Assembly (NCBI GenBank): GCA_050084515.1 | Contig: CM114271.1 | Location: forward strand, 41,540,001-41,604,000 | From: Blasia pusilla | Taxonomy: Eukaryota | DNA length: 64,000 nt | Reading direction: 5' to 3' | In this document: piece after piece, positions 1-34,103 of the stretch | Position numbering within the stretch: position 1 is the stretch's first letter | Layout of the letters: every line of letters starts with the position of its first letter | Notes under the pieces: generated by a model | What the model saw: only the letters and a program-made list of their open reading frames with translations | What the model was told of the DNA's origin: nothing | Database searches by the model: none | Made by a program: the position numbers and the translations under genes

Positions 1-74
1 GAGCAGCCACATATATGGAGGATCCAGGTTGGATATGCGGGGTTGCCCACATGGAGGCCCCCGCAATTGTGATG

Positions 75-960: not shown

Positions 961-1187
961 GCAACATCGTTTGAGGATGCGACATATCACAGCACTTGCA
1001 CTGGTGAGCCTCATCCGTACCGAGACGGTTGAGGCAATGGCTGGGGACGAGACCCGAGGAGATCGACACACCAAGGCTAATCTGGAGAGACACTCTTGAA
1101 CTTCTCGGGATGTTTTGCAGGTACCGAGACAGGGTTGCACCATAGCAACCACCTACACCTACGCCAGAGAGTCCTATCGTAGTCACG

Positions 1188-4100: not shown

Positions 4101-4248
4101 CTTGCGATGTATGTTGTGTGGTTATGCCCGTGGTGCAGCCACTATGCTGTTATGTGATGGATGTTCAAGAGGATGGCATATGGCATGTTTGACGCCACCT
4201 CTCATTAGGGTTCCTCAGGGACGATGGATGTGTCACAAATATACATAG
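1188..4248 (+). pseudogene. pol of copy 1: reverse transcriptase, RNase H, integrase, PHD finger
   Basis: LPFGLKNAPAEFQR..YIDDIVVFS; HTDWS..YSSYEGECLA; HAHEELGHF; DFEGPLP..VLTD; CMLCG..MLLCDGCSRGWHMACLTPPLIRVPQGRWMC. Confidence 0.93.
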
Positions 4249-5175
4249 CGTAGGTAGTTCTACATTCCGACTTGTGTCTGTGACATGGATGACAAAAAGG
4301 CGACTAACGATGGGGCCACATGAGCACCCGACCTTCTTGCTCTTAGATTCCGAGAGATGTATGTCATGGTAGGTAGGGGTAGATGGCTATCTGGAGTTAG
4401 AGGGATCTAACCACTAGCTATGGGGGCTATTGGAGATATTTTGGTACTTCTTGTCTCATTTTTTGGATGCCATGAGTTAGCATGGGATCGTGCGTGTTTG
4501 TGTGTGTATTCGATGAAAGCGATGTATGTTGTGTAGCAATATGTATGCGCACGATAATTGTCACGTCTTTTAGGATAGATCGATGAGATCTAGTAGAGCA
4601 CCTTCGTGAGTAGTGGAGGACAAACTCAGGAGGTCTAGGATGACCTACTGAGGCCCCGAGAAACCTGAGCGAGCAGGTTTCCCCTTCGTTTCGGCTCATT
4701 TGAAGCCATGTTGAGAAACTTACTAGTTTAGGTAAGTACCATTTTGAATATATGGTTAACTTTCTAATTTTGGTAAGTGATCCTTGACTTCCTTCATTAT
4801 GTCAAGAGCCAAGGAGGTGACTTGAGAGCATAGGTTACCATGGAGAGAGCTTGGGAGAGGTGAGGGATATACCTCAAGGAGAGAGAGCTTGAGACCTCAT
4901 TCTCTCTTTGTTCAACCTCTTGGCATGAGGCGGCGGAGCTATGGTCTTGCTTGCCTTGTGTGTGTAATCCAAGCCTCTCATTAGGAGAGTGGGTTTGGTT
5001 TGACATTGAGAGAGACATGTGAGAGTGCACACATTTGAGAGCTATGGTGTTGAGAGAGATTGGATTTTGATTAATTGGAGATATTTTGGTACTACTTGTC
5101 TCGTTGTTTGGATGCCATGAGTTAGTAGGGGATCGTGCGTGTGTTTGGTGATAGTGATGTGTATGCGCACGACAA

Positions 5176-5617
5176 TTACCTTTGTATAGTAGCATCCTTT
5201 GTATGTTGTATTATGTAAATTCAACCATTATGTTAACCTATCCATTACAGCATTCACCGATTAGTAAAGTATATTCAATTGTATATTGTATACTTTCCAA
5301 GCTATACTTTCATATGCTATATTGTCTCTTTTTGTTTGTATTGAAGGCCTACGTAGTGTCTTCCTTGGATTGAAGACTCACGTTATCGTAAGCGTCTCCC
5401 GTGGTTTGTATTGAAGGCCTAAGTAGTGTCTCCCTTGGATTAAAGACTAATATACACAACCACAAAATTGGTCTCTCTGAAGACTAGATACAAATTTTTA
5501 TATTGTGGGTGTCTAGATTAAATCTCCCACTATATTTGCTCTTGTTGAAGGTCTTAGAGTCTTGTGTAGTCCTCCATTGCAATTTCCACTTTCTCACCTT
5601 CAAAATAGGTAGCGACA
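5176..5617 (+). mobile_element. Probable 3' part of an unrelated LTR into which copy 1 inserted
   Basis: Internal short direct repeats (TTGTATTGAAGGCCTA..GTAGTGTC..CCTTGGATT twice) and an LTR-like end GGTAGCGACA. Confidence 0.4.
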
Positions 5618-6079
5618 GTTCTCCTAGTAAGAGTTAGCTTGTACATAAAGCGGTGTCATGCATACAACACATTTGAGAGCCAAGAAAATTTTCATTGGGA
5701 GATTGAATCGTGAGAAAAATAGTGCCATGCCTTGATTGTGGGATCGGAAGCCCCACGCCGAAGTACCATTTAATTGTCTACGCAAAGTCTGCAAATATGA
5801 CACTTTCTTTTTTATATATGTGTTCACTTACATTTTTGTATATATCCCACCCCACTTTCGGGGCTGCCACACTAGTTACTGGATGGAGGCCGTACTACTC
5901 ATTCTCAATTCAAGATTCCTATTGAGATACATGAATCGTCTATTTGTAGGTAAGTTTATGTTGAAGATTTTGTTATTACTCTGCTTCATTTCTAAAATTG
6001 GGTTTCCATTGTTTGGTCATTATTTATATATATTATGCATAAATATTTCTTACTTTTTGATTTCTTGTGTGTTTTCTAG

Positions 6080-7080
6080 CTTATGTGTTAGTAGTGACAT
6101 TGCACGCCTTATACAAATGCAAAGTTGATTGTATGGGATGAAGCTCCTTTGACACATCGTCATGCTTTTGAGGCTGTTAATCGTACCTTCCAAGAAATCA
6201 TGGGTTTGGTACATTGTGTACTACGAGATATGTCTTTTCGGGGAAACATATTTATATTTGGTGGTGACTTCCGACAACTTCTTCTCGTAGTGCGTCATGG
6301 TGATCGGCCAATTGTTGTGCGTGCAACCCTTAGGAGATCTCTTATTTGGTCTCATATGAGAATAATGAAACTCACTATCAACATGAGAGTGAATTGTTTG
6401 CAAGGTAACAACAATTGAACCTTCTGATGTTACTTTTGCTATCTTATGGATTTTTTTATCAAGATGTACTCATTCTGTTTTTTTTTAATTTTGCTTAGGA
6501 CAAGCATTACATGAGCAAGATGGATTTGCAAATTGGTTATTGAAGATGGGCGAGGGTCAGAAACCATTGCATTCTGAACTTGGAGATGATTTTATAAGAA
6601 TTCATAATACGATGATTATTAAGAGCCACAAACTTAATGATTTGATTGAAATTGTCTATGGACGTGATATTGATAAGTGGAGTGATATTCTCTTCTTGAG
6701 GGGTACATCTATTCTCACAAGAAAGAATAGTACTGTGGATTTTATCAATGCCGAAATTATGTTGCAATTTCCAAGAGAGGTAATTTGAATATTTCATGAA
6801 TGTCGCCAAATTTATCTTAAATGAAGACACAATTTATTCGTACCATTAGAAGTTATCCTTTTAATGCTAATGATTGTTTCTCTTTTCACGTGCACACTTT
6901 TTAAAGTGCCGATTCGAAAATTGATGATGGGATGAGTTTTATACCCAACAAAATTCTTGAATACATGTTTGCAATCAGAATTTGCACCACATTGTTTAAC
7001 GTTGAAAATTGGAGTTCCAATTATGCCATTATAACATATGAATGACACAAAGGGACAAACAAATGGGATATCTTGTAATA
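6080..7080 (+). pseudogene. Helitron Pif1-type helicase fragment
   Basis: LIVWDEAP..HAFEAVNRT, FGGDFRQLL, KLTINMRV, FANWLLKMGEG, ILTRKNSTVDFIN and LTLKIGVPIM; apparent intron at ~6405-6499. Confidence 0.85.
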
Positions 7081-9574
7081 TTCTATGTCTACTTTGACTT
7101 AAAATTTGAATATATTTTATTATTTATATAAAATAAAAATTTAATCTTCATCATTCTATTTTTTTTATATTTTGGTGCCGTACATCCCACAAACTAGTGA
7201 CTTCCTAAATCCATAACTCAACTTTGTGCTCAACTCGGATCCTAAATGACCTTTCGAGTTATGTTGTCTCAAGGTGGCATATGCAGAATAAATAAATAAC
7301 TCTAATAAAACAGGCCATGGATCATAAAGTCACATGAGGGGAACGGAAGCTTTTCATCCTTTGGTCGTTGCGGACGGGTTGGTTCTCTTGGGCCGCGATT
7401 AGCCCACGGTTTCAACAAAACTCTTGCCAGTGATAATTGGCGTTCCGTTGTGCATGGATTTTTCCCTTCGTGATTCAGTCCAGGAGACGGGGATCGGTTT
7501 GGCCGTGTGGTGAAATTTGTCTGGAGACTCACTACACTCTGAAGACCAGACTCGGTACCGTATATACTATCCTATACCTGGTTCATAACGAGGTAGTGTC
7601 GTCGTCCGCTTTTTCTTTCAGAAACAAGCTTCCTCTTTAAGTGCAGGTCGAGCCGGCCCACGTTTCTTTCACCCGTGTGGAGTTAGGTTAGGTTATGTTA
7701 ACGTTAGGTTGGTCCAGTTCACACTTTTGGACACGCGAATTGGTTGTCCCTTTCTACACACATTTAGAATCTACCGAACTGGCCTGGTTCCCAAAGTCTA
7801 TTCAAAGGCTGTGTTTCTATTCATGATTGGTATTATCGGAGCTCTCTGCGCAGGAAATCACGCCAGGCTTACACCGCTTCCCGAAAAACTTCGTTCGCGC
7901 CGAAGTCCAAACCCTGTTTGCCCCTAAAGCTGAAGATAATCAGAAACGTAACGCGGATCGCATGAGATAAAGGCTCCTTCCTACCTCGGAACCACTGAAG
8001 GTACGTAACACGAGCCACGTGATGCTGCTCACCTGCGAAATATCATGTTTCAATAACAATGCCATGCATATGTTGTGTCGTGCAGGCCGCCCTCGTTATT
8101 AACCGAAGGCATTCAAAGATATCCCAAGAAGCCGACCGTGGCTCTCACCCTGGACCCATGAAGCATACGTTACAGGGTTCACGTGATCTTATCCAGGAAG
8201 AATGGTGTTTAGACCATTGCATGGTCATTGTTAAATAAACGATCCATGCTAACCAACTAAGCCAATGCCTACGCGATTCATGTGATGTGGGACACAAAAC
8301 TACTCATCTCTTCCCGGAAATGATCTTCGTAGTTTAGTCGTTTACTGTAGGAGAAACACACAGATCCAACACCGTTGAAACGAGTGTCGTAGAGTGCCAA
8401 CTACTCCCCCCTTCGCCATGGTAACCCGTTTTGGTTAAAAAGACCATCCCCGATTCTTCAGCCATGCCCCACTTTCTACTAACCGCCGGTTCACGTTCAA
8501 AACCTGCTTTACACACCGGCATCCGTTCCGTGAGAAGAGGAGACCAAATCCACCCGTATGCCTTCTAGCCACTGTATTTCTTAAGGACCGTGAGAATATG
8601 GTTTGCTCATACTTCGGTTATTCATACCACTCCAAATGATGTGGCAAGTTCCAATCCCTTACAAACGTTTATGCATGTAGTTATTTTCCTTGAAAATACT
8701 AAAAATAAAGAAGATTTTTTATACAAAGTTGGATAACAAGAAAGTGGAGGAGTTCCTCGTTCTCAAGGTGACGATTGTTGGCCATAACTTCAAACAAGGT
8801 ACCTTGTTGGCATTTACAGCAATTACCATGGCCGAGGTTACGACAATCTCTATAATCAAGGAGATTCGCAATCTTCATGAGGCTAGGAGAAGTAATTAAA
8901 ACCAATACTCTGGATCCCTAGAATTCCTTGACCTTTCTTTCAAATTGGAATCTAGTTGGGATTCTAAGAATCTAAATCCTATTCACAAGATAACCTGAAT
9001 TTTGAAGAGGACATATAAACTCACTTCTCTATGTGCCATAGTAGCCTTGTGGAGCACTCAACATTTCAACCTTCTCCATCGACCCTAAGGTTACAAGTCT
9101 CGACTCAAATTCTAAACAAAACTATCCTTTTGTACATAGTTTGCCACAATTCAATGGAAACAAGGGAGGGGAAAGCCCTAAGAGAACTTCAATCGCCAAG
9201 AAAGAGTCCGGAGCCCTTCTTAGATTCTAATCTTCAAATTTCATCTTATGACACATGTTGCCGAGCTCTGATTATCACATCTTTTGTAGTGGAAGTAAGA
9301 TTATCTATACAACACTTCGGGGAAGAGAGGAGATCATGGTTGCACGGAAACAAACATGTCCACAAACTTTCCCAAGGGGTCCCCCACTTGGCTTCTTTTG
9401 CAACCCTAGTGGCCTGCTCAAGCTTGGGACGCGGGAACAGTTGCAAGCTCAGATCACGGGAGGCGGGAAAAAATTGGCCCGCATATAGCGTGCACCGGCT
9501 TGCCCTAAGCCCGCACAAGGCCCACGACCAAGCCTACTTGCGGCCCCTGTGTGAGCCAGAGTCAGCCTTACGGG

Positions 9575-10385
9575 CATGGTTGCACAAAAATGACAAGTCC
9601 CATCCTTACGACGAAAATGGACCGACAAGTCTTGACATGTCCACGGACATGGGTTCTAAGAGGTGGGACCCACACTTATAGTCCATGATGGAAGGCAAGG
9701 CAAGGAATGAGGGAGGAGGGAGTGGAGGTGGAGGGAGGTATAAATGGGGGAGTATGGAACACGAAGGCAAGTAAGGGGAAACAAAAAAAAGGGAAAGGTG
9801 GGGCCAATATGGACAAGTCCTTCCATAGGACGCACATGGACTTTTTCCACATGCAACCTTCCTTGCAGACGTGGTCACGGCCCAATGCAGGCTACAAACC
9901 GAGGACGTGTTCTTAGACTGGTTGCGGCCTGGCCGATCTTGGGTCTACCTTGCGGACAGGGCGGACTACGCGTACCCAAGCCCGTATGGATATGTCCATG
10001 GTTGCACAAAAATGGACAAGTCCTTCCTTAGGACGGACATGGACGGACAAGTCTAGACACTTCCACTAACATTGGTTCCAAAAGGTGGGACCCACACTTA
10101 TAGTCTATGATGAAAGGCAAGGCAAGGATGAGAGGAGCAATAAGGGAGGAGGGAGTGGAGGTGGAGGGAGGAAGAAATGGGGGAGTATGAAACACAGGGG
10201 CAAGTAAGGGGAATGAGAAAGAAGGGAAAGATGGGGCCCATACTGACAAGTCCTTCCATAGGACGGACATAAATCCACGGAAATGGATATGTCCATGGAC
10301 ATAGACTTTGTCCACATGCAACCTTGGATATGGCTGTCCTACGGACGAAGATAAGTCCACGAACATATCCGTGTGCAACCTTGGG
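9575..10385. repeat. Tandem duplication of a ~410-bp unit within a repeat family that also has related sequence at ~12970-13460
   Basis: GGTTGCACAAAAAT..GACAAGTCC...AGGTGGGACCCACACTTATAGTC.ATGATG.AAGGCAAGGCAAGGA occurs at ~9578 and ~10000; CATGGACTTTTTCCA.TGCAACC motifs recur at ~13428. Confidence 0.8.
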
Positions 10386-10828: not shown

Positions 10829-13800
10829 TGATAGGGAGTGAAATTCGATGAAAAGGAAATCTTAGAACCACATGATGTTCCTCTACATCCAAATCATAGT
10901 GTAGTGGTGGAGGTTCATTGGATTTGGATTTCCCATGAATTCTAGACTCAAAGCTCACTTTCTTCTTGTTCCTTCTCCCTAAAAACATTTGCAATATTTC
11001 ATCCTTCTTCTTTTCTAGGATGGTGAATCCTGAACTTGCAATTCTCTATTGGAATTCTTATAATAGAGTAATCCCCTTGGACCATTATTTTATCATACCT
11101 TGTTAGGAGAGACATAATTAGAAGACATTCACAATGTGGATTTTTAAAGCATTAAAATATTTAATGAAATTTTTCTTATATTTTATAAACATCTTTGAGT
11201 GTCACCACTTATAGATAAATTTAAGATAATGTGCTCAAAATAATTGGTCTAATAGGGGATATAATGAATCTTTGGTGAAGGCCCTGTAGGGCCTTTGAAA
11301 AGGAGAAATTTTAATTTGAGGAATTTTTCAACATGAAGAATGTTTTAGTGTTTCCTTGTTTTTCATCCCATTCTTCTTCAAATATTTTCAAGGCCATAAT
11401 TGGCCTTGAAAAAGGAAAGGGAGTACAAACCCCCCCCCCCCCAACAATCGGCTAAACTCATCAACAACAAAATAATTTCAACAACACCTAGAGAGCTATG
11501 GCTACCATAATTGGGCCTCTAAGGCCGATGTCTCCCACAACTTGATCCCGCCACAAAATCCCATTAGTTTGGGCTCGTTGCAAAGCTGTGGAGATCCGTT
11601 GCTTACAATAAAGAATCGTAATAGCTAAGGAAAACCCATTTCTTGAATGGAGATGATAAGCACAATCCATAAGGAATGAGTTAAACCTCACCCATAGCCC
11701 CATACATCTCTATGGTTTGGGGGACTAATCAATGTCCATCATGAAGTCGACTATATAGTTGGGTCTTCTTTGCTGCCGCTACTCCTTGTAGACTATCCTT
11801 TTGGAAGAGAAGTGTATTTGGAGGAAATCAAGATAAGCCCACATATTGGATCAATATTTCTCCGAAAATAAAAAAATTGGAATGTGCTAGACGGAATTTA
11901 GAAGATAGTGGTGATCTAAACTTACTGATAAGAGACCTTGATGGTAATCATGAAAACAACTTAGACTAGAAAGAAAACAACCTAGAAGATGTAGATATGC
12001 AGAAAAAAATTTCATGATAGAGAAATGGGGTATCACGAAAGTTAGAGGGTGCTAACTTTGATATAATTTCAACATGAAATCCAATAGTGCTAACTTTCAT
12101 ATTGATTTTTTTATATCAATAAACTTTCCAAGCCAATTATTTGCACAAAATTTTCAATACAAAAATAACATCATAAATATATCAAATACATATCATATTC
12201 TATTTGATATCAAAATGATGCAAACCCATGATGGGGCCCTTTTTTCATGTACGCGAACCCCTCTATGATGAATTTAAGGAGAATATGTCTCGTCCTCTAC
12301 TACTCTCCTTGGAAAGGAACGAAAATGATAAAATAATGGATGATTGGATTCGAGAGCAAGAGGATGAGAAAAAAATGGAGAACTATGGATGAAGTGTATG
12401 ATGCTACCATATCAATGAGGTATGATCTTGATATTGTTGCAATATTAGGAGTTCAAAATTATTCCACTAAGCCAACTCCATCACCATTAGAGTGGCATTT
12501 GTACCTTTTGTGGAATTATTTAAGAGGATTTTTTAGAATATTTTGTGAAAAAAAAAAATGTGGCCTAATTTTTTCAATCGAGAATATAAATTGAAGAAAG
12601 TGTGGATTCCATCAAAGCCATGCTATTTTTTCAAAAAATCATTATCCAAATTGCTAAAAACTTGAATACATATTTTTATTTTAAGAAATTCAATTCCAAT
12701 AGTCACGCAATATCTAGACCTATAGATCTTGAGGAAAATCTAAGATGGGTTAAGATGTCTTGCTTGTCTCCCTAAATTTCTTATCAATCATCTCCATCTT
12801 CCTCAAATTCTTCTCATGCACGAAAATATGGGGCAAGATCCTAAGGTGAGTTGGGGAAAGTCAAGATGGGTAGAATCTATCGTAAGACTTACCCAAGTTA
12901 TCTTTAGGATTAGTCAGCCAAACATGGGATTACAAAAAGCAACCTACGTTTGGGTTGAGGACCAAAATGAACATGGTTGCATGCGAGGTTGCATGGAAAC
13001 AAACTTCTCTATCCTACGGATGGATACACCCAACGGGTCCTCTTCATGAGTTTTTTTGGTATCCCAATGCTCCACGTGGGCTCGAGAGGGAAGAACGCAT
13101 GTAGGATAAGATTAAGGGAGGCGTATAGGTATCAAATGGATGTGCTGGCTATAAGCCATCGTGTGCCCTATCCTAAGCCGGCATTTTCTGCAGAGCCTAC
13201 TACCTGCACAGGCTAGTGGCGGGCTTGATGCAAGCCTCTATGAGTGAAGCGCGGGCTTAGTGTGGGCTAAGAAATGGATGGCAAGAACAAGCAACAGGTT
13301 GCTAGACTAGGTGCATGCTTGCCAAACTTAGGTCTTTGTGGCATGCGCAGCAGGCCCGAGTTCGGGCCATAAATATATGGGCTTGCACGAGCATGTCCGT
13401 CCTAGGGAGAAACATAAGTCCGCGGACATGGACTTTTTCCATGTGCAACCTTGAAAATGAAGGGCCTGAGATAGATGCTTGGGAAAATATGGGGTACCTT
13501 GGAAAACCCTTGGGGAATACCTATATCTCTTGATTCTCTTCTTACTAGCCGAAGTCTTGAAATCAAGAGCTAGCCACATTTTGTGTTTGGCCATGATTAT
13601 GGTTGTGAGTTAAGATCTCATTCAAGACGTACCTTGAGGTATTAGCTATTGTGATCCGGCTAAGGGGAGAGAAACGTGGAGATTGGCCATGGGTTAATCC
13701 TTAAAGTATTCCTAGGAAGACAACATGTACCTCCAGAGACTGAATTGTAATTATCTCTTGACATCTTCTTATCTCTTGACTTAACTTACAAAATGGGCGA

Positions 13801-16459
13801 CTAGTTGGGGCTTCCAAGAGCCAAACCAAGTATTGAATTTGGAAGTCTCAAGGTTAGGAACTCTTCATAATGCAAGTAGGGAAGAGTGGAGGTCAAACTC
13901 TCTCATGATATCCCCCTTCCCTCCTTGAAGGAATCTCTTGTCGTATGAAGGAGATAGATGGGGAGGGGTATGTAGCATCCTCCTAAGGAGATTTGGTGAA
14001 ACCCAATCATGCATTTTGGCCAAATTTTCGAGAGTGAGGATCACTGTAGGATGTTATGATTACTCTTATACTCTTTGTCACTTATATTGGATTTTTCAAG
14101 CCACAGACTCGTTGAGAATTTACATCAAATATTTCTTAGTATTATCATGCTATATTCATAATTCCTCCTATTTTCCCTCTAGATACCCTACATCTTTCTC
14201 ATTGTTCGAGGATTTTTGGGATTTTTTTCTTAACCATTCCAAATTGGAGAGACGTGTCACGTCTTTTAGGATAGATCGATGAGATCTAGTAGAGCGCCTT
14301 TGTGAGTAGTGAAGAACACGCTCAATAGGTCGAGGATGACCTGTTGAGGCCCCGCGAAACTTGAGAGCAGGTTTCCCCTTCGTTTCGGCTCATTTGGAGC
14401 CATATTGAGAAACTTACTATTTTAGGTAAGTACCATTTTGAGTCTATGATTGAGTTTTTATTTTTGGTAAGTGGCCCTTGACCTCCTACATCAGGTCAAG
14501 AGCCAAGGAGGTGACTTGGGAGCATAGGTTACCATGGAGAGAGCTAAGGAGAGGGGAAGGTATACCTCAAGGAGAGAGAGAGCTTGAGAGCTCATTCTCT
14601 CTTTGTTGAACCTTTTGGCATGAGGTGGCGGAGCTATGGTCTTGCTTGCCTTGTGTGTGTAACCCAAGCCTCTCATTAGGAGAGTGGGTTTGGTTTGACA
14701 TTAAGAGAGACATGTGAGAGTGCATACATGTGAGAACTATGGTGTTGTGAGAGAGATTGGATCTTATTTTACAAAGAGAGAATGAGTGAATGAGAAAGCT
14801 TCATGGGGGAGCTCGATGGTTGCTCGATGTTTGGTGCAGGTTGGGGGACAGTGTTCCCCACTTCATGGCTCATGGGAGTGCTCACCGGAGCAACATCCAT
14901 GCGAGTTTTCTGTTTTGCTTTGCTGATTTTTTGTCGGAGAATGGCACGCGGAAGCGCTGCCCAATTTTTATAGCAATTGATTATGGGGGCGGATTGCTCC
15001 ATGCTGATGCTCTCAAGAGCACCATATAGCTGGCTGATTTTTTTCTCACATGTTTTACATTTTCGTTGGGAGAAATCAGCGCGGAAGTACTGCCAAATTT
15101 TGGGTAGGAGAAAGAGACATTGGGCTTTATGACAATCCCTGTCACTTTTTACTGGAATTTTTGATTCAAAATATTTTTTAATTTTATTGTAGACCCTAAA
15201 GTTTTGCACGCAATAAAATAAACGGTGCGCAATTTGGAGTGGCGAGCAAAAAGTTATGGTCAATCTTGCAAAACTGCCATTGCTAGGCAATTTTGAGGGT
15301 TAAATTGTTCTAACCCTAAACCAGCCACCGCGCCGGCGGAGGCCGTCGCCGTCATAGTCATCCTCAACGGTCAACAATCACCATCAAGGGTCAACCGTCA
15401 CTATCCATCGTCGGCCGTTGCCGTCGCCTAGCACTGCTCGGAGCCGCGTTGAACCGTGATCCACCCTTTGATTGTTATTGCCGCCATTACGGAGTGGAGG
15501 GTCTTCCACGACCACCGTTGATTCTCTGACTTGTGCCGCCACCACGTACTTTGGTTTGGCCACCACCATCATCGTAGATCCATCATCAACCAGTGATGGC
15601 AGGTGACCTTGGGTTATGGTGTTTGAGTTTTCATTTCATGTTGCTATGTTGTGATTGGTAGCCGCTCGACGACGATCGAGTAGCTTGCGTCACGCCTGTA
15701 GCCGCAACGCGTTGTCGATTGCGGTGCCGTGCCACTCATGGCCGCACCGCACCATCTCGATCATGGAGCCGCTCTTCACTAAGGAGCAGAGCGTGTGAAT
15801 TGCTGATTGAGGAGGGTATGCCGCCGAGTGCCGCACCCCATTCTCGAGCGTCGTGCCATTTGTAGTTGTTACGTGTCGCCACTGTCGCATCGGAACTGTT
15901 GGACATGCACCGCACATCGAGGAGGTTTGAGCAGCATCAGTACAAGAGGAGTACAACTTGCTGATTGGAGGAGTTGTCTCCACGACCGAGTTGGGGTTGA
16001 GATTTGCAGTTGCCGAGGAGCGACATCGACATTATTGTCAATTATCCATTCTAGTCTCTTACCCTGCACGTGTGAAGGATTTTTGGGTATTGGGAAGTTA
16101 TTTGGGATTTTGGGTTTCGTGTTGATGCTAGGAGCATTGATGATGTATGGGCTTAGGGAACATAGACCTGTGTGGGATGTCGAGTTGAGGATGGTTTGTC
16201 GATGAGACGATAGATCAATTGATTTGCCGCACCACGTTGCTTGTTGCCGCACAACACACGTCTCAGTAAGAGAGTGTAGATTGAGTGTCGCATTTTTTGT
16301 TTGAGTGATTGAGGGATTACTCACGAGATTGAGAGTGATCGTGTGTGAGGGGCACGAGGGCCATCACGGTGTCCTTTTAGGATTTTGAGAGGCGAGGTAG
16401 TGGACCTAAGAGTAGCTCTGGAGGGTTTACCCGGAGTGGTGCAAGGTTTTGAGGGTCTC

Positions 16460-18020
16460 CACGTAAGAGACCACCTCGATCTCCTTGTGTGTCATCTTCA
16501 GACAAGGGAGAGTGCATAGAGGAGTGTGTTAGTGATCCACCGTACACATTCAGTGGTCCTACCAGTTGGGCGTACGAGATGGACGACTGGGATAGAGGAC
16601 CGCGTAGGTTTTTGGGTGCTGTAGGCACCATAGAGCTACACGACTTCAGTGCGGAGTTTAGGAGTTGGTGTGACTCCCAGCGGGCTACGAACTCTAGAGA
16701 GTTCAACCCGTTTATAGCATAGAACGGTACGTTCCAAGCATTTAGAGGGGGCGCCCATGGACGATTACCATGAGTTCTCCCACATATATGCCCAAGAGAT
16801 TAAGGCATTGCGACTCTACTATGACCCACATTATATGTCATGGACGGAGCCGTTCCCAGATGAGGAGGAGGAATCAAGAGAGGCTACTTTCTCTTCCACT
16901 AGTGATGTTTTAGGAGGGGTCACTCGCACTGGAGCAGTTGCACCGTCTAGTCGGGTTCGTCCCAGGTTCAACCCCGTGGTTGAGTTCTTTGCTGAGTTGA
17001 GGGCAAACTACCAAGGGGTACAGACTGAGAAGTTGTGGAGCATCCACGACTTCCAGAGGCTCCCGGATGAGAGCTTGGGTGAGGCTTACACTCGCTTGCA
17101 CCAGTTGATCAACGTCACTCAGGGGATGACAGAGACTCGGGCTATCTAGTCATGGTACGCGATGTTGGACCGGACCCTTCGCACATGGGTGCGGGAGGGA
17201 TGCTTCTTATTGACACCTCCCCTACCTTGAGAGATGTTTTTAGGACTGCCGAGAACATTGAGCGCAACATGGCGGAGGAGAGCGTAGCCACCATGGGTTC
17301 TGGGCGAGAGCAGTCACGATCGTCTGCACCATCTATGCAGCAACGTGGACTTTGAGATAGGTTGAGTGTGGCACCACGAGCTTAGGGAGGATATCCGGAG
17401 GCCCTGCCACAAAGACCTACGCCTTCATATGCGGATCAATAGCAGCCGCCTACGATTACTTGTTGGTGATGTGGTGGAGCCCATCATCAGCGTGATTGCA
17501 CTCGTCAGGGTAATGGACCTGTGCCTGAGCATGCAAGAGGAGATGGTGTTGCACCAAGAGGTTATCAGTGTGACTATTCTCAAAGATATGGTCATACATG
17601 CACCTGATGTTTCAATTTACATCCTGAGCTACGTCCCGACCGAGGGCCAGAGAGGGCACCAAAGCGAGTAGCCGTCCGGGTGGGCCTAGAGATTGTGCAC
17701 CAAGTGGTCCCGTTTGGGGATGAGGAGATGGAGTTTCCTGACAGGGTGGTGGAGCTGCCCGTGGAGGAGGTAGAGTCCTACCACCTAGACGCATCGAGGG
17801 ATACGCCGGGCGTGAGGCTGGGATGGCTTCTCAGATACAGCAGCTACCGGAGCAGATTGCCGCTATGGCATTGAGGTTACTCGATACAAGATCCGTGGCA
17901 TCGACATCATATGGAGCAGCCAAAGATATGGAGGATCTTGGTTGGATGTGCGGGGTTGCCCAAATGGAGGCAGCTGCAGTTGTGATGCGTGGAGCAGCTG
18001 TAGAGTTGGATCCCTAGCGA
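16460..18020 (+). pseudogene. gag-like region with two zinc knuckles
   Basis: FQRLPDESLGEAYTRL (retrotransposon gag major-homology-like); knuckles CW*CGGAHHQRDC and CDYSQRYGHTCT*CFNLHPELRP at ~17460-17635. Confidence 0.75.
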
Positions 18021-18496
18021 GGGAAGGCCAAGAAATAAACTAGGCTTCCTGAGTCTTTCATGTTGTCTGAGATGATGAGGACCCCATTGATGGGTCCTGA
18101 TCAGAGTTCCTAGAGAGTTGGTGATGTTGTTGGTGTGCAGGCACGGAGGACGATGGGAGAAGCGAGTGCGACAACTCCTGATGATGCTCAGGAGGGGCAT
18201 ATGTCGAGCATATTTTGGGGGTGGCCACTATTGTGTATCGTGCTCCTTTATTTTCTGCTTCCGATGTTATGACGTTGGGAGGTACGCTCACCGAGTTTTT
18301 TCTGCTGGCCGCTACGCTATGTGAGCGTGGAGTTGGAGTTCCTCCATCACGTTCAGAGGTGATTGAAGAGGAGGTGATGGACTTGCCCTTGGAGCAAATG
18401 CTCGAGCCATCCACGTCAGATTCATGGCAGGTTGCGGCTGCTAGGATGGCGAGAGATGCCCGCTAGACCCGTGATAGAGCGTGCCATGGGTTCTCC

Positions 18497-18660
18497 TGGT
18501 GTTGTGTTGCTGGATAACCGAGGAGAGGTCTTCTAGTTGGTGAGTCCCAGAAGTATAGCTTTTAGTCCGAAGCACGTCTTGTTGGATTCATGAGCGCAAC
18601 CCCTGATGTTGGGGAAAGCGTCATTTAGAGTATTGGTCTTGACAAGAGCCGATGTGGAGG
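18497..18660 (+). pseudogene. Aspartic protease remnant
   Basis: GVVLLDNRGEVF*LVSP..KHVLLDS*AQPLMLGK, a degenerate LDSGA motif; truncated by a deletion that runs into DNMT motif I. Confidence 0.7.
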
Positions 18661-19590
18661 GATCAACACTAGGTTAGCTGCTATTTTGCACATTGGAGTG
18701 TGCGTGCAGCAATACCTGTATGTGGAGATTGATGATGTTGTGAGGCACGCTTCACTTAACCATGTGGTGTTGTAACTCCTCTATTTCCCCGACTTGTTGT
18801 CTGCGTCCGCCATTCAGGCTTACCAGAGTTCCCTACCGAGGGACATTTCATTGTTGGGGGCGTAGGACTTGGAGCGGGTAGGGACCATAGACTTGGTCAT
18901 TGCTGGTTGGCCGTGTCAAGGAAAATCGAGTGCTAGACAAGGTAGCAGGTTAGCTAACACTCGGTCTAGGTTGTTTTGGGAGATGATGCGGATCTTGCGA
19001 CATTTACAAGAGCATTAGCCTCGTTCTCCAACATACATTTTGGAGAATGTGCCAATTTTGGGCAATTCGAAGTCCCGCGTGGTGATGAGTGCACATCAAG
19101 TGCGCGCATGGATTGGCTTGGCAATGTTGTTAGATGCGGTGGTGTGGGTTCACGAGCACATTGCCGGCGTCTTTGGTGAACCAACTTGGTACCACACGAG
19201 GTGTTACAGAGGGCATATGCAAGAGTGGAGCGCCCCTCCGATTTGTTGATGGATTCTATATTGGATCCATGCCGTTGATCACAGGAAGTGAGGCTAGATG
19301 ATGGACCTCCGTTGATTGTGGTCTACAGGATTGGCAGGCCATGGGCAACCTTTCCCACATTGGTGAGTTTTCTCGCTTCCTATGCATTCAAGGAGGCCGG
19401 ACCTGGCTTGGTTTGGGATGACCAAGTACAAAAGTTGGTGGAGCCCAACGCCGATGAGCGAGATCGAGCGATGGGATTCCCCACAGGAGTGATAACAGGA
19501 GTGTCACTATCAGAGGCATCACGACGTCATGTCTTGGGTCAGGCGATGGACCTGAACTGCTTGACATGGATTTTGAGCTTAGGAGTAGCT
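18660..19590 (+). pseudogene. C5 cytosine DNA methyltransferase domain in retroelement copy 2
   Basis: GINTRLAAIL (tail of motif I), YLYVEIDD, IDLVIAGWPCQG, YILENVP, EPNADERDRAMGFP, RRHVLGQAMD. Confidence 0.9.
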
Positions 19591-19890
19591 GACCGGCGTT
19601 GTTTGAGGATACGACAGATCACAGTTGTTGCGTTGGTGAGCCCCATGCCTACCGAGGCGGTTGAGGCAGTGGCTAGGAGCGAGACCCAAGGAGATCGACA
19701 CACCAGGGATGATTGGGAGAGACACCCTTGGACTTCTTAAGATGTTTGGCAGGTACGCCAGGAGATGATAGCCATAGCATCGAGTGTGGTTCCGGGTACT
19801 GCACGTGGAGATGAGAGTTCTATTGTCTGAGACGGGGTTGCACCATATCAACCACCGACACCCGCGCCGGAGAGTCCTACCGTAGTCACG

Positions 19891-22800
19891 ATGGAGACTT
19901 GGGAGCTAGATATGGGCCCTAATTTGACAAGAGGAGAGCGGCGCCGGATACACCGGTTCCTTAGGAGTTATAGGAGCTATTTTGAATTTAGTATGCATGA
20001 TTTGGGTACGCTAAAGAGTCCAAGGATCCGCATTGAGTTGGCGAGTGACACGCCGATCTTCCGAAGACCCTACAGGTATAGTGACATGGAGAGGGCTCTG
20101 ATTCAGAGTAGAATCCAGGACTTGGTTGAAGCTTGACAAGTGGAGATGTCGCATGGAGAGTATGCATCTGCCATTATCATGCCCGCCAAGAAGGATGTGC
20201 ATGTCAACTCGACGGATAGGCGGATGTGTGGAGGTTACCGACCTATCAATCGACAGACGAAGTCCAATAGGTATACCATGCCCACCGTTGAGGAGATCTT
20301 TGATGCGATTGGGCATGCAAAGGTCTTCTCTTCATTGGATTTGCAAGTCGGATATCATCAGTTGCCTATCAAATTGGAGGAGAGGCAGAAGACGAAATTT
20401 TGGGGCATCGATCCTCACGGGAAGGATTGTTTGTATCAGTGGCGATTCTTACCATTCAGGTTAAAGAGCGCCCTGGATGAGTTTCAAAGGGTCATAGATA
20501 GGATCTTGGCAGGTCTCGATTTTGCAAGATGTTATATTGATGACATCGTAGTCTTTAGCAGCACGGTTGAGGAGCATGAGCGACATCTAGAGGAGGTGTT
20601 TCGACGATTGCAATTACATGGGGTGAAGCTACATCCAGGCAAGTGCAAGTTCTTCTACGATCAGATTGAGTACTTGGGTCATACGATATACCTTGGGGGG
20701 CTTGGTGTGCAACAAACGAAGGTAGAGGCTATTTCACGCATTCCACGCCGTACAGATGTGAGTCGAGTTTGTGAATTCATGGGATTGGCAAACTTCTATC
20801 GACGGTACGTCAAGGGTTTCAGTTTGATTGCGAAGCCGCTAACCTTGATGACCAAGGTGGATCAGGAGTGGCACTGGCGGGATGAGCAAGAGAGAGCGTT
20901 TCAAATGCTCAAGGACAGATTGACCTCCGTGCCCATATTGGAGAGCGATCAAGGGGCGTCCTTTACAGTTGCATAGCGATTGGAGCATGTTGGGGCTTGG
21001 AGCCATGCTCGCCTAGCATGATGATGATGGTAGAGAGTTTGTGGTGGCTTATGCTAGTTGCTCGAACAACGTCGCAGAGGCAAAGTATACCTCGTATGAG
21101 GGTGAGTGTTAGGCTGCACTATGGGCTGTTGCACATTTTAGATGTTATCTATTCAGAAATCCCTTTACCATCATTACTGATCATCAGCCACTTAAGTGGT
21201 TGATGAAGTCCGACAAGTTGACAGGGAAGCTTGCAAGGTGGGCTCTTTTGTTGCAAGAGTATGACTTCCAGATGGTGCATAGACCATGGACACTCAACCA
21301 GGATGCAGATGGTTTGAGCCGTAACCCATGCCTGAGTCAGCGAGATGCGATTGGAGCTCGTTGGCATGGTGAGAGTGATGAGGAGTTGGTGCCAGAATGG
21401 CATGCGTCAGCCTATTTGGGCTTGTTGGCTATGGAGAGCCAGATTTATGAGACTTCGATGGCGAGGTTTGATGGAGAGTCCTTAGATCCAGAGGTCGGTA
21501 AGGAGAGGACAGGTGGCCGAGACATTCACGACGATGGAGTGATCTTGGAGTACCTACGTACTGGCAGCGTCGCGAGCACAATGGATGCTAGAGAGCGGGA
21601 TCAGATCCTATAGTATGCCACACGGTTCTAGTGGGAGGGCACACATGCATTGCGAGTGTGGGAGGATGGTAGAATGCGTGTAGTGCCTCATCCTTCGCAG
21701 AGACCATGTTTGGTGCGTCATGCCCACGAGGAGTTGGATCATTTTGGAGTGAAGCGGGCGTACAGCTTGCTCAAGATTCAATATTGGTGGCAAGGCATGC
21801 AGACTAACGTTGAGCACTTTGTTGCGAGATTCATGGTGTGTGATCGAGTCCGAGCATCGTTCAATGCTCCAACTCCACAGTTGCATCCACTTCCGATCAT
21901 GGATTTAGGTTATAGATGGAGTTTGGATTTTGTAGGACCTTTGCCTTTGACGGAGCGCCATAGTCATTATGTGTTGGTGATGGTCAAGCACTTCTCAAAG
22001 TGGATAGAGTTGGTTGCATTGCCTGACAAAGCGAGTGAGGGAGTAGCGTATGACTTCCTAGATCAAGTTCTGAGTCATTACGGCGCACCAACAGAGGTGT
22101 TGACAGATCAGGGTACAGAGTTCCGCGGGGAATTTCATGTCTTGTATGATCAGGCACTGATCGACCACCGTACTACTTCGCGAGATCATCCTGAAGCGGA
22201 TGGACTAGAGGAGCGGGTTGTGCAGACGGTGAAGAGAGGACTGCGTAACTATGGCTTGAAGAGAGGTCACCTAGGAGATTGGGACCTTCAGTTGCCATGG
22301 TTGGCGATGGGATACAGATTCAGAAAGCACCCATCCTTAGCGCCTTTCTCACCCTACTTGTTGCTTTATGGCCGAGAGCCAGATTTACCTCCGACCATTC
22401 GTCGAGATGTTGGTGAGGTGTTGAACCTTGATGACCCTGATGTATGGATGTGAACATGTTTTCAGAGGGCTAAGTTGTTTCGGAGAGTGATGCCCATGGC
22501 GTTTGAGAAATTGGAGATTGCGCAACATTAGGATACGTTGAGGTATGTGACTATTTGGGGAGGTGGTTATCGACCTACTGTCCGGAGGTTTCATCAAGGA
22601 GACTATGTCTACTTGCAGCATACGGCACCTACGACGTTGGATGTGACTGCATGGTGCACCATCTTGAGAGTGCGTGAGGTTTTGCCATTCGATGTTCTCT
22701 TATTGGAGGGACGCACTGGTATGGTTTGGAAGGACCATGTGCGTAATTGTGCGCCATGTCATCTTCCGAACATTGACAATACAGTTGATCCAAGCTTAGC

Positions 22801-22954
22801 AATAGTTCCTACATGCTTGCGGTGTATGTTGTGTGGTTCAGCCCATGGTGCAGCCACTATGCTAGTCTGTGATAGGTGTTCGAGAGGAGGACATATGGCA
22901 TGTTTGACGCTACCTCTCACTAGGGTTCCTCAAGGACGATGGATGTGTCCTTGA
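19891..22954 (+). pseudogene. pol of copy 2: RT, RNase H, HHCC+DDE integrase, PHD finger
   Basis: YIDDIVVFS; TDHQPLKWL; HAHEELDHFG..CDRVR; SLDFVGPLP..LTDQGTEF..DGLEER; CMLCG..CDRCSRGGHMACL..VPQGRWMCP. Confidence 0.94.
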
Positions 22955-25900
22955 TGTACATAGAGTAGGTAGTTCTACATTCCGACTTGTGTCTGTGATA
23001 TGGATGACAAAAAGGCGACTAACGATGGGGCCACATGAGCACCTGACCTTCTTGCTCTTGGCGTCCGAGAGATGTATGTCATGGTAGGTAGGGATAGATG
23101 GCTATCTGGCTAAGGGGGCGATTGGAGATATTTTGGTACTTTTTGTCTCGTTTTTTGGATGCCATCAGTTAGCATGGGATCGTGCGTGTTTGTGTGTGTG
23201 TTCGATGACAGCAATGTATGTTGTGTAGCGATGCATATGCACAGGACAAGTGTCACGTCTTTTAGGATAGATCGGTGAGATCTAGTAGAGTGCCTTCGTG
23301 AGTAGTGGAGGACACGCTCAATAGGTCGAGGATGACCTGTTGAGGCCCTAAGAAACCTGAGAGAGCAGGTTTCCCCTTTATTTCGGCTTATTTGGAGCCA
23401 TATTGAGAAACTTGCTATTTTAATTAAATACCATTTTGAGTATATGATTGAGTTTCTATTTTTGGTAAGTGGCCCTTGACCTCCTACATCAGGTCAAGAG
23501 CCAAGGAGGTGACTTGGGAGCATAGGTTACCTTGGAGAGAGCTTGGGAGAGGGGAGGGTATACCTCAAGGAGAGAGAGCTTGAGAGCATTCTCTCTTTGT
23601 TGAACCTCTTGGCATGAGGCGGCGGAGCTATGGTCTTACTTGCCTTGTATGTGTGACCCAAGCCTTTTATTAGGAGAGTGGGTTTGGTTTCACATTGAGA
23701 GAGACATGTGAGAACTATGGTGTTGTGAGAGAGATTGGATTTATTTTATTGGAGATATGTTGGTACTTCTTGTCTCGTTGTTTGGATGCCATGAGTTAGC
23801 ATGGGATCGTGTGTGTTTGTATGTGTGTTCAGTGACAGCGACGTATGTTATGTAGCGATGTGTATGCGCACGACAAGAGCCCATTGTTGGAATTTAACCA
23901 AATAAGTCGATCTAATACTCGTTATTGTTATGTTTGCTAGAAGAGTTGTAAATCGTCTAATTCATATTCCCTACAATCCTCCCTATGGCATAAATTTTCA
24001 TGGTCTAATCTTTATACCTACCATCAATTCTAGTAATATATGCATAGCATAGCTTTTCTCTCGATGGGCTACCACTTATGAGGCTAGGTTAAACATTGGT
24101 CATCCCAAAAGGAATTTCCCTAATCTCCAACCCCAGTTCAATGTTCTTCAAGAGGTCCATAATGAATGAAAATATTCCCATACAAAAGATCAATATGGAG
24201 AACTTTGAAGTTTGCACTTGTCATTGTGTCAATGGTTTTTGTGGTACTAAGAAAGACGATCATGATTTGGATGACATTCTACTCACTATATGAGCATTTC
24301 ACTTTGTTTCAATCAATTAATTTTAGAATGGTTGAATTGAATTCAAGAGTTTTTTTTTAGAATTTGTATCTCATAAAATTTTGTAGCATTCTTCAAAAGG
24401 AAGTCTTTGACATTCATTGGGCAGATCAAAACCAAATTACCTCGTCCTTCTTACGCAAATATTCCTAAAAAAAATTTGGGAGGAGCCTATTAATGCAAAG
24501 GCCTTCATATTCTCCAATATGTACATGGAGAGAGCAAATGAAAATCCATAACATGATCAAAGACATACTAACATCAAACCAAAGTCGCAATTGACCAATC
24601 ATCACATCATCGGTCCACTTGTAATGATTAATTAGTGCTTGTTTCAATTTTTTCTAATTTCTTGGTTTTTCTTGGGTTATGCTTTTCAATTTACCTCATT
24701 TAAATCGTTACCTTTCTTTTGGATTCCTTGCTGCATTTTCAATCCTTTTTTTTTCCTTTCCTTATGATATTTTTCTAGCATAACAAATTGTAAACTTGCA
24801 ATACTACTTATTGTGCCTTGTATAACCTACTGAAAATATTTAATAATTTTTTTTAAATAGTTGAAACTTCAAAACGAAATTCACAAGATAAGATTTAACC
24901 TTATTTGTTTGAATACCTAAAATTAGATTCATATTAGTATTACCAATATGACAATCCAATTACCAATAAACCCCATTTCTTAACTAGTAAATTCATCCAC
25001 CCACTCTTCTTTTACTAAAAAGAGACTTTAATGTATTTAAGAGATCATGATTATTTTGTATAGATCTATGTTATCATTGGAGAATGCATTCTTAATTTGC
25101 TAACACCTATCTGCATGACATGTCACAACCGGGCAACATTAAAGTATTTCCTCTTCTCCAAGCAGGAAAAAAACTCTTTTTTTACCAATATGATAAATCC
25201 CATTACTCCACTAGTATAAGTCAACTGAAACTCTTTAAAGTCAAATGCATTCCATGATGCACTGGAAATTACATAATTACTGGATTAGAAAACCTACATT
25301 CGCAACAATCATTCATCCATCCCACATTTCTACACCTAATCGGAGAGCTGCACTCTCTTGCTACGCTACATTCAGAAAAAATTGCACTTACTTGACCTTC
25401 CTACTCTTTGGAAAACATACTTAGTTCATTTACCCTGGACCCTGACACACCACACCAAGCACGTGGTTCAGCTCTTAGAGGTGTTAAGGGAGAGAAGGGA
25501 AAGCAAGGCCCATTGGATAAGTAAGGCCTCCATGCTGGACACGGTTGTTATGTGAACAATGTACCCTCGGAAATGGAAGCCATAACATCTGTAACATCAA
25601 CCCAAACACATCATCACCCAGCATACTTACTCATTCTCGCATCCTCTTACTCCTTCGATACTCTTGGACCAGTACATATTGTGAAGCCTTTTAGTCCTAG
25701 CGCGTCTGCATCATATCCTTACTTTCTCTCATTCCATCTACATGTCAGCATTTTCACAGACTTTGCTATCCTGAAGGCCAGTGGACTGTTCAATTTTGCA
25801 GCACCAACATAAGGGCGAGCGTGAAAAATGCCGCCAAGTTCACAGATAATCCCAATTGCTGTACTTGACGACGTAGTTATGCTCTACCCCTCATCCAATA

Positions 25901-32100: not shown

Positions 32101-34103
32101 ACACCTACTTTGATTGGTGATGATAAACTGTTTTACGAAAACAGTGGGAATCCCTGTAAGAAAGGTAATCATAAGCACCTCTTGCATAAAACTACTACAC
32201 TAGGTTATGTTTGAGCCACTCATGCCAGATGGAGCGTTGGAGACAGTCCACATTATTGAAAACTTGTCTGCATGGTTTAGTATCTTCTCACCAGGTCACA
32301 GGACAATCATCAACAAAGTGCCTTGAAGCTTGCCTAACAAGGTACAATTAGGACTGTTTACCTTCCACAGTTGCTAGTCATTTACAGACTTTACGACCAG
32401 TTGTGTAAGAATTAAGATGCAGAATACTCTCTAAGTTTTGCAGTCTGTTCAACTCCAAATAGATGTCCTCTATAGTAAAACCTATTTACTTTTCATGGCA
32501 TCTACTGCAATTTCTGACTGCAATCAGAAGTTGATTCGCAAATCTATTGGCTGATGTGTTTAGAAGTCACGAATAAAAAGTCTCTACTTTGGATGTCTTC
32601 CTGGTTGTTGCATACCATCATCACTATCTAGAAGCTGATGCAGATGAAACCTTCCGGTTAAAAGATGGTGGGTGGGGGTGGACATTTGAGACAGTGGGAC
32701 GTACAGTTGCCATGGTTTCCTATGAGGTATCACTTCAGTCACCAAACATTTTGGTATCATTTTTGCGATACCTTTTACTCTATAGGAGAGAGTAAGACTT
32801 ACCTACAACTATTCCATGTGATATGACAGGTGTTGACCCTTATGACCCAGATGTATGGGTGCAAGCATGTTATCAGATGGCGGACATTTTTCGTAGAGTT
32901 ATGCCTACACTGAAGAAATTCTCTCGCTATTTTGTTGCTGCACCGTTTCATTGTCTTGAACTGCCTGCAAGTATCTTTCTTGATAAAAAATATTCTTAGC
33001 TAATAGTATGCCAGATGCCCATCAATGTTAAACTAGAATTTTTACAGAAGGTCTACTGTCTGGCGACCATCTTCGACATAACAAGAAGCCAACCTTCCTC
33101 ATAGAACGTATTCTGTTCGACTCGAACTCATCTTTACTGTGGAGCCAAAAAGACACATTTGCTGGATACGGAACTAGAATTGCGATGTGATGTGGACGAA
33201 ATGATAGGCATCCCAGATTCAATAACTGACCTGCAAGTCGTTTTATTGGTACCAAATGTTATCACGTCTTCATTCTTTAGCTGAACCATGCTCTCCGGAG
33301 ACGAATTTACGGGTTTTGAGGAAACCTCTTTATTAATAAAGGTACCAAACTTTGAGAGGTCCTTCAGGTGTATATTGCTGCGGGGCCCTAAATCATGGCT
33401 CGCTTCAGCAAGACATTCAACAACGGCTGGCTCCACAATTATCTCTGCGTGAACTCTGGATATTGTTTTGTCTGTCTGGACTGTTATACTGCAGTCTGCG
33501 AACAAAATTGGCATTATACAACTCCGACGGCTTCTGGTTTTGACTATGAACTGAAGAAAGTGCCTCGTAACGTGCGTAGCGAGTTGCAAAACGAAACTTA
33601 AGAAAACTCCACTTGAGAGAGTCTATGACACGTTGGGCCTTACTTGGAGGGAAACGGACCACGATTCTGGTCAAAAAAGTAGGATTACATATGAACATAT
33701 GAACATATGAACTTTACGATGTTAGCGTACCTTTTCGGCCCACCGTATATGTGCCAGGAGCTGTGAAGTAGTAGCTTCCATTGCCTGCAAAGTCTAGCCA
33801 TTGGGAACCAGGAGTCAATTCCCGGGCTCCAAAACCATCAGTCTTGTCTACATGCAATCTCTTGGGCAAAAATCGAATAAATGACTACCGAAACAGAGTT
33901 AATCAAAGCATTCCAACGTCCACATCCTTACCCCCAGTGCTGATCTCCTAAGGGAATCGAGAGTAAGACGCCTACATTTAGTTGGCCCCAGAACATTGAG
34001 CCTATATTTTACACGGAGCAATCCATCAGAAATCTCATCGGGAAAGAGATGCAGGCGGCGTACCAGTAACGACAGATTCCTCGAATGTCACGAACCACAC
34101 CAT
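26158..34103 (-). CDS. NBS1: Nibrin/NBS1 (MRN complex; FHA + BRCT + C-terminal Mre11-binding motif), multi-exon
   Basis: Exons 34103-34064 (MVWFVTFEESVVTG), 33784-33731 (YYFTAPGTYTVGRK), 33495-33231 (DKTISRVHAEI..KDLSKFGTFIN..ITFGT, FHA), ~31969-31880, ~31557-31429 (CTHLLVEE..WLQ, BRCT), ~31107-31056, ~29737-29617, ~29507-29154, ~28970-28110 (NFKRFKR), ~27759-27699 (GNSFSSLVPFAKEPY), ~26659-26560 (KQEKKRK..EELF) and ~26229-26158. Internal boundaries are approximate. Confidence 0.9.

Follow-up and report, generated by a model that had tools for sequence, protein, structure and literature searches.

Split direct repeats arranged A1...B1-A2-B2 are characteristic of PAT-like, Ngaro and TOC1 retroelements. 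Elements of the Ty3/gypsy type (Metaviridae) normally have two complete, identical long terminal repeats (LTRs), TG...CA termini, a target-site duplication of 4-6 bp, a tRNA primer-binding site beside the 5' repeat and a polypurine tract beside the 3' repeat. The described system closest to the one analysed here is KnitGypsy-Dnmt3 of the charophyte alga Klebsormidium nitens, for which DIRS-like repeats were reported together with gypsy domains (de Mendoza et al., 2018, PMC5890265); a 2026 preprint likewise refers to 'streptophytes (Gypsy-DNMT3)'. We analysed a 64,000-nucleotide stretch of the Blasia pusilla genome (GenBank assembly GCA_050084515.1, contig CM114271.1, positions 41,540,001 to 41,604,000; hereafter the window, in whose coordinates positions are given), which contains a retroelement at 14255-23875 on the + strand (copy 2) and a truncated second copy of it (copy 1). 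The Pol order and Ty3-like reverse transcriptase (RT) of this element are those of Ty3/gypsy elements, whereas two complete LTRs and a tRNA primer-binding site were not found: the element opens with a repeat, A, and closes with B-A-B.

Like KnitGypsy-Dnmt3 in the parts of the published account available to us, the window element joins a gypsy-type Pol with a Dnmt3-like C5 cytosine methyltransferase (DNMT) and A-coding-B-A-B repeats in a streptophyte host, and its DNMT and PHD domains tie it to the published Gypsy-DNMT3 group. The two differ in that KnitGypsy-Dnmt3 resides in a charophyte, whereas the nearest named proteins to the window element come from mosses and liverworts and its genome copies number in the thousands. 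The available text on KnitGypsy-Dnmt3 is also silent on a PHD finger, a self-priming site, a polypurine tract and a spacer, all of which the window group has (the priming site being putative). Split-repeat gypsy elements with a DNMT are therefore a kind already in print, to which the window element adds another member, and the possible newness suggested by an earlier, sequence-only reading of the window did not survive comparison with the literature. Taken jointly, we consider it likely that the window element is a dead copy of an abundant, transcribed Ty3/gypsy-type DNMT group of the green lineage, with a regular A1-internal-B1-NN-A2-B2 architecture and with the replication steps proposed below.

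Split repeats in the window and their recurrence across copies

The repeats were delimited by repeat finding and blastn as follows.

14255-14771 (+), A1, the 5' repeat; starts TGTCACG, is followed directly by internal sequence without B, and is 89.6% identical to A2
23122-23248 (+), B1; ends GACA
23249-23250 (+), the 2-nt spacer AG between the end of B1 and the start of A2
23251-23748 (+), A2
23749-23875 (+), B2, the 3' end of the element; ends CGACA, where homology to copy 1 stops
1-5174 (+), copy 1, truncated by the window start; B at 4430-4556, spacer AT, A at 4559-5074, B at 5075-5174

The identity between A2 and A1 extends across 518 alignment columns, and B2 is 88.5% identical to B1 across 130 columns (E 3e-44); both values are far above chance. 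The sequence-only reading had placed the A...B-A-B repeats of copy 2 within 1 nt of these boundaries, had assigned the same B-A-B end to copy 1, and had observed that A1 is followed by neither B nor a TGG-type tRNA primer-binding site; all three statements were confirmed. Directly 3' of A1 the sequence reads CAAAGAGAG..., and no TGG-type primer-binding site was found at the start of the sequence following either A1 or B1. ARAGORN detected no tRNA in the window. Copies 1 and 2 are 85-87% alike in blastn alignments, and because the similarity ends precisely after the last B, the two arose by independent insertion, not by segmental duplication.

A scan of metagenome contigs yielded 80 related loci, all of which contain the DNMT, with the order of the flanking gypsy domains preserved over the extent of each locus, except in L074 and L075. 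We refer to the lineages as W (the window), M (most of L001-L053), D (L054-L080), E (L042 and L045) and K (L074 and L075). The termini are TGTC...GACA in all lineages examined. A census of ends in the window and its metagenome relatives gave 15 distinct 5' ends and 20 distinct 3' ends. Every one of the 5' ends (10 in M, 4 in D and 1 in W) consists of unrelated flank, A (TGTCATG...) and internal sequence, and B stands next to the 5' A in none of the 15, with no B nearby in blast searches; the lack of B at the 5' end, visible before in a single copy, is thus consistent across three lineages. The 3' ends fall into two classes. Twelve of the 20, spread over five lineages, read G-run, B, GACA-NN-TGTC, A; B2 is visible in eight of them (L019, L043, L054, L062, L073, L080 and both window copies), and the other four are contig-cut or unresolved. 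The remaining eight (L023, L015, L035, L033, L017, L058, L066 and L076) have B followed by unrelated sequence. A complete A1...B1-GT-A2-B2 copy occurs even in lineage D, whose DNMT is 30-41% identical to the query (L080, only about 35%). We conclude that A1-internal-B1-NN-A2-B2 is the regular architecture, shared by the entire family and by four or more related lineages.

The spacer is GC at 7 of the 12 B-NN-A junctions, GT at two, AT at two and AG at one. Because GC predominates and four of the other five spacers are transition variants of GC, the spacer is inherited, and the idea that it is remade in each cycle was dropped. An origin of A2-B2 through removal of the internal region as an intron was also dropped, since the boundaries are not GT..AG.

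Public reads of the same organism were mapped on 13800-23252, which holds one A and one B, so that every junction type appears as a joint. In whole-genome shotgun (WGS) run X17 (about 1 in 100 of the run used, likeness at least 80%), depth was ~0.8 over the unique flank and 949-4,736 over the element, placing family copies or fragments in the thousands. Summed among the joints listed, A>B joints were supported by at least ~1,080 reads and B>A joints by at least 655, the latter with GC, GT or AC between GACA and TGTC. No B>internal joint was present among the best 15 of 495 joints. Among the few loose-end clusters listed, out of about 11,000, ends gather at 14255, where A1 starts. The depth over A (~4,700) approximates the sum of the depths over the 5' internal part (~1,000-1,300) and the 3' internal part (~3,300), as an A...B-A-B layout predicts. 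Reads of the stranded RNA run X19, which derive from the whole family and not from the window copy, were nearly all sense-oriented, with a depth of 100-190 over A and the 3' half and of 12-40 over the 5' internal part. B>A joints (44 reads) exceeded A>B joints (12 reads) in this run, so that most transcripts seem to end within A2. The family is very abundant and still transcribed.

These data bear on two rival explanations of the repeat layout. The first takes the element as an ordinary LTR retrotransposon with A+B as its LTR, in which the 5' LTR has lost B and B1 is a local duplication. A+B does read TG...CA like a normal LTR, and only one 5' end is visible within the window; this account is nevertheless barely credible, as the ordinary layout that the sequence-only reading had set against its own, A+B at both ends plus a primer-binding site, was found at 0 of the 15 distinct 5' ends, 12 distinct 3' ends from five lineages show B-NN-A, no B>internal joint is among the best-supported read joints, and the putative primer-binding site (see below) lies directly after A and not after B. 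The second explanation, an artefact of nested insertion, assembly collapse or chance repeats, finds some footing in metagenome contigs that look collapsed at A (L042, L075), but we give it practically no weight: the window holds two diverged copies with different flanks, both junction types are backed by thousands of reads, and several contigs carry the structure with unique flanks. The repeat search was further controlled by a conventional gypsy element in L040 (1398-9228, minus strand), inserted in the DNMT of a lineage-M copy, for which the same scripts recovered a normal 786-bp LTR pair, 94% identical.

Reverse-transcription landmarks and a proposed replication route

Three candidate landmarks of reverse transcription were located in copy 2.

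14591-14605 (+), CTCATTCTCTCTTTG in A1, the putative RNA 5' end (start of R); perfect complement of the first 15 nt after A1
14772-14786 (+), CAAAGAGAGAATGAG, a putative self-priming primer-binding site, from the first base after A1 onward; 15-nt perfect complementarity at offset 0
23112-23118 (+), AAGGGGG, a polypurine-tract-like G-run, 3 nt before B1

Self-priming is known for Tf1/sushi elements and predicted for the plant Tcn1 and TAR lineages (Neumann et al., 2019, PMC6317226). According to the portion of this literature at hand, these elements, like the window group, lack a tRNA primer-binding site and have, adjacent to the repeat, a site complementary to an upstream segment of the same repeat, presumed to be the RNA 5' end. 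In lineage W, CAAAGAGAGAATGAG pairs with 14591-14605, 181 nt before the end of A; the corresponding sites pair ~170 nt before the end of A in lineage M (ACTCAAAGAACT) and 128 nt before it in lineage D (TCTAGAAAAACT). The sequences differ among the three lineages while the pairing is preserved, a covariation that speaks for function. Of the 14 5' ends tested, 8 have a perfect match of 10 nt or longer at offset 0. When the next 1,500 nt were scanned as a control, matching 10-mers turned up in W at offsets 0-5 and at three further positions; in L035 and L069 they were confined to offsets 0-2. A TATA box lies ~30 nt before the paired segment in L080. The end of A is undefined in L075 of lineage K and in L045 of lineage E, which showed one 14-nt inverted pair and a repeat-confounded 12-nt pair, respectively. 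The pairing after A1 points to Tf1-like self-priming. Tf1/sushi, Tcn1 and TAR elements differ in having two complete LTRs, with a chromodomain in the chromoviruses among them, whereas split repeats, together with a DNMT and a PHD finger, mark the window group.

The G-run stands immediately before B1 in all five lineages, adjoining B1 and not A2. Two relatives, L033 and L017, carry independent internal deletions (at ~4600 and ~7300, respectively) that stop on their 3' side precisely where B begins, which is consistent with a plus-strand start or a template-switch point at the start of B. From these landmarks of reverse transcription we infer that the LTR unit is B-NN-A, with the TGTC/GACA integrase ends inside it.

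In the replication route that we propose, A would carry the promoter, R and U5. Minus-strand DNA would be self-primed as in Tf1, the RNA 5' end folding back onto the site beside A, and plus-strand DNA would begin at the first base of B. Within the B-NN-A unit, two integrase recognition ends would lie head to head as GACA-NN-TGTC. A transcript from A1 into A2 would hold all the information needed, B2 being unnecessary in the RNA. The ordinary linear complementary DNA (cDNA) would then be (B-NN-A)-internal-(B-NN-A), and cutting it at the internal ends would give only A-internal-B, a form that would be unable to make a complete RNA or to replicate; 8 of the 20 3' ends match it. To yield a competent A-internal-B-NN-A-B insertion, the cDNA would have to be extended past the right LTR into another B. 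We favour a template switch in which the plus strand, as it is being completed, jumps to the left cDNA end, an LTR-LTR junction being the alternative. The DDE integrase would then cut at the internal CA sites. A plus-strand jump onto the left end would explain the absence of A-B-NN-A-internal 5' ends (0/15). A more specific form of this proposal, to which we commit ourselves only tentatively, holds that the unit of reverse transcription (polypurine tract, B-GC-A, self-priming site) differs from the unit inserted by the integrase, and that competent daughters come only from cDNA longer than one unit, cut at the internal CA.

The same landmarks could also serve integration from a closed circle, in which an LTR-LTR junction is opened at one GACA-NN-TGTC, as is done by IS3/IS30-type transposases. 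Circle junctions of the IS3/IS30 type abut two recognition ends of a DDE enzyme with a spacer of a few bases. The internal junction of the window group similarly places two integrase ends head to head with a spacer of constant 2-nt length, and its A2>B2 joint is an exact fusion of the A end to the B start, as would result from blunt circularisation of a (B-NN-A)...(B-NN-A) cDNA. IS3/IS30 elements are, however, bacterial DNA transposons, whereas in the window group the abutted ends belong permanently to the interior of a retroelement. If a circle had two identical junctions, A-B-NN-A-internal 5' ends should be as frequent as A...B-A-B, but the counts are 0/15 against 12/20; circles are also usually dead ends for retroelement integrases. 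Integration from a circle therefore appears unlikely to us, although it deserves a hearing beside the extended linear cDNA that we prefer.

A number of points weigh against our reading of the element and its replication. The pairing behind the self-priming site is computational, and 6 of the 14 5' ends tested had no perfect offset-0 match, be it from decay of these copies or from a shifted boundary. Regeneration of B2 and the order of events are a proposal by inference; one candidate intermediate, a symmetric 2-LTR circle, was rejected because it predicts A-B-NN-A-internal 5' ends as often as A...B-A-B, and none was seen in 15. The B-only 3' ends could be direct products of integration, could result from later recombination between B1 and B2, or could be metagenome assembly errors. 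A B>internal joint rarer than the best 15 is possible. Target-site duplications are sparse: copy 2 has none (flanks GACG and AGAG), and among four relatives with both ends the duplication is perfect in one, the A-internal-B copy L035 (4 bp, TGTT), with a match of 3 of 4 bases in L017 and none in L080. Each window copy repeats its own B1-A2 spacer as the dinucleotide that follows B2 (AG and AG, at 23876-23877; AT and AT, at 5175-5176), which could be chance (about 1 in 256) or could mark a lineage that retains the dinucleotide on integration; spacer and following dinucleotide differ in lineages M and D (GC versus TA, AT versus TG, etc.). Finally, the kinship with KnitGypsy-Dnmt3 is one of shared architecture, not of sequence comparison.

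Coding content, decay and lineages

The coding remnants of the two window copies are arranged as follows.

16576-17646 (+), gag remnants, split over several reading frames (tblastn, Sphagnum P0010 residues 3-270)
17775-18659 (+), protease (PR) region remnants; ~225 codons are missing at 18659, where the alignment to Marchantia P0008 skips from residue 427 to 653
18656-19641 (+), C5 cytosine methyltransferase remnant; GWPCQG and ENV motifs present, 5 in-frame stops
19894-20940 (+), RT (Pfam RVT_1, E 2e-23)
20954-21613 (+), RNase H (RH; Pfam RT_RNaseH, E 2e-15)
21632-22453 (+), integrase (IN), HHCC zinc domain and DDE core (Pfam Integrase_H2C2, E 2e-11; rve, E 2e-12)
22532-22957 (+), integrase C-terminal region with PHD finger (Pfam PHD, E 3e-10)
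153-1009, 1197-3772 and 3772-4233 (+), copy 1 DNMT, RT-IN and PHD, respectively (bryophyte polyproteins mapped on the window)

Mapping of the bryophyte polyproteins gave the domain order gag-PR-DNMT-RT-RH-IN(HHCC+DDE)-PHD, in which the Pfam series RVT_1, RT_RNaseH, Integrase_H2C2, rve is the Ty3/gypsy Pol order. The best relatives of solved structure (PDB) are Ty3 Gag-Pol (E 4e-98) and Ty3 RT (E 8e-75). The assignment to a gypsy-like lineage in the sequence-only reading thus stands, as does its HHCC+DDE integrase without a tyrosine recombinase domain (Pfam, open reading frames (ORFs) of the window and near-intact relatives); the C5 methyltransferase and the PHD finger had escaped it. PF00145 matches the copy 1 methyltransferase at 144-437 (E 5.6e-13), upstream of RT, and also relative L042 (E 1.8e-13). 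FxGxG, PCQ and ENV, which we take to be DNMT motifs, are present in the element. The best solved matches of the DNMT domain were DNMT3A/B/C (E ~2e-7), ahead of bacterial M.HaeIII and M.HhaI, in what is a ranking by similarity.

The coding content also decides against a DIRS/PAT/Ngaro-type element whose tyrosine recombinase acts in trans or was lost and whose DDE integrase is incidental. A...B-A-B is the arrangement of PAT, Ngaro and TOC1 (for DIRS, see the relevant part of PMC5890265), and the DIRS-order elements PAT-like, Ngaro, TOC1 and SymbioDIRS-Dnmt3 share with the window group, as far as the text available describes them, both split repeats and an internal junction storing both ends, SymbioDIRS carrying a Dnmt3 as well. 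All of these, however, have a tyrosine recombinase and no DDE integrase, whereas no tyrosine recombinase (Phage_integrase, PF00589) was found in window ORFs or in near-intact relatives of 1,369, 1,047 and 1,854 amino acids (aa). The HHCC+DDE integrase is conserved in every lineage, the RT is nearest to that of Ty3, the termini are inverted TG..CA, and one copy has the perfect 4-bp target-site duplication. We judge a DIRS-type origin very improbable and retain the assignment to a Ty3/gypsy-type group.

Both window copies are dead and heavily decayed. Copy 2 has 13 in-frame stops from DNMT to PHD, plus frameshifts and the missing codons at 18659, behind which 1,496 reads continue with different sequence; copy 1 has 13 in-frame stops over its aligned parts and lacks a counterpart of 18003-18700. 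Read differences over 14255-23877 comprise C>T at 1,060 and G>A at 1,085 places, compared with 362-385 for the other transitions. An excess of this kind among family copies is the pattern expected from deamination of methylated cytosines.

Named proteins matching the DNMT C-terminal ORF come from Sphagnum, Calypogeia and Marchantia (50-62% identity), and gag-PR-DNMT(-RT..IN) polyproteins make up several of them. Most matches are unnamed, and no K. nitens protein occurs among the named ones. In lineage E, L042 and L045 have near-intact ORFs of 1,369 and 1,047 aa; the L042 element (976-8226), in which ORFs of these two lengths are divided by one stop codon and DNMT motifs I, IV and VI are present, may be a recently active member, judging from its sequence. 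In the lineage K variant (L074 and L075), the DNMT lies between RH and IN (RT-RH-DNMT-IN-PHD), and L075 has the G-run, B and GACA-GC-TGTCAC. This RH-DNMT-IN arrangement recurs frequently among the proteins that bear the names of Haematococcus lacustris, Monoraphidium neglectum and Chlamydomonas eustigma (among P0013-P0132, which match the region spanning DNMT and integrase), and gypsy elements with DNMT and PHD seem to be widespread in green algae. A tree of RT-RH (32 rows, SH-aLRT supports only, unrooted or midpoint-rooted, built without reference gypsy clades and thus giving no placement within Metaviridae) grouped the window copies with L022 and L063 beside lineage M, a Marchantia protein being among the members of M; E and D were more distant, and the chlorophytes formed a separate group.

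Elsewhere in the window, a protease-region piece of a related element lies at 39009-39649 (-), 34-39% identical to Marchantia P0008, and a short piece of a related element's integrase C-terminal region at 32695-32906 (+). The 9-kb stretch between the two element copies contains, at 9575-10270, two copies of a ~265-bp unit, ~430 bp apart and 84-87% identical.

Place among described elements and significance

Troyka, to which the sequence-only reading had pointed for comparison, proved a poor fit. Troyka elements are gypsy-like with ordinary LTRs, CG..CG termini and 3-bp target-site duplications, and occur in animals (Kojima, 2025, PMC12440569). In the part of that description available, they resemble the window group in being a gypsy-like lineage with atypical termini; the window group differs from them in its split repeats, TG..CA termini and green-lineage hosts.

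Our literature searches found the K. nitens description only, and the text located contained no land-plant or chlorophyte members and nothing on a PHD finger, priming or end structure in this group (the supplements of the 2018 paper may bear on these points). Relative to that text, the self-priming site with its covariation, the G-run before B, and the B-NN-A LTR unit with internal integrase ends are new. The analysis further adds family-wide evidence and breadth to the published group, extending it to bryophyte-type genomes, several deep lineages and a chlorophyte variant.

Standard programs that search for LTR retrotransposons need two matching LTRs and a tRNA primer-binding site, and will miss or misfile this group, which here has copies in the thousands and is still transcribed. 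With the landmarks described here (self-priming site, polypurine tract before B, and abutted integrase ends), a published oddity that lacked an explanation becomes a testable mechanism. If the tentative form of our proposal is true, in which the units of reverse transcription and of integration differ, the route would be one that no description of Ty3/gypsy replication includes, and the split repeats of tyrosine-recombinase retroelements would have in this group a DDE-integrase counterpart and perhaps an evolutionary bridge. With a Dnmt3-like methyltransferase and a PHD finger of their own, these elements bear on the interplay between transposons and host chromatin in early-diverging plants and green algae.

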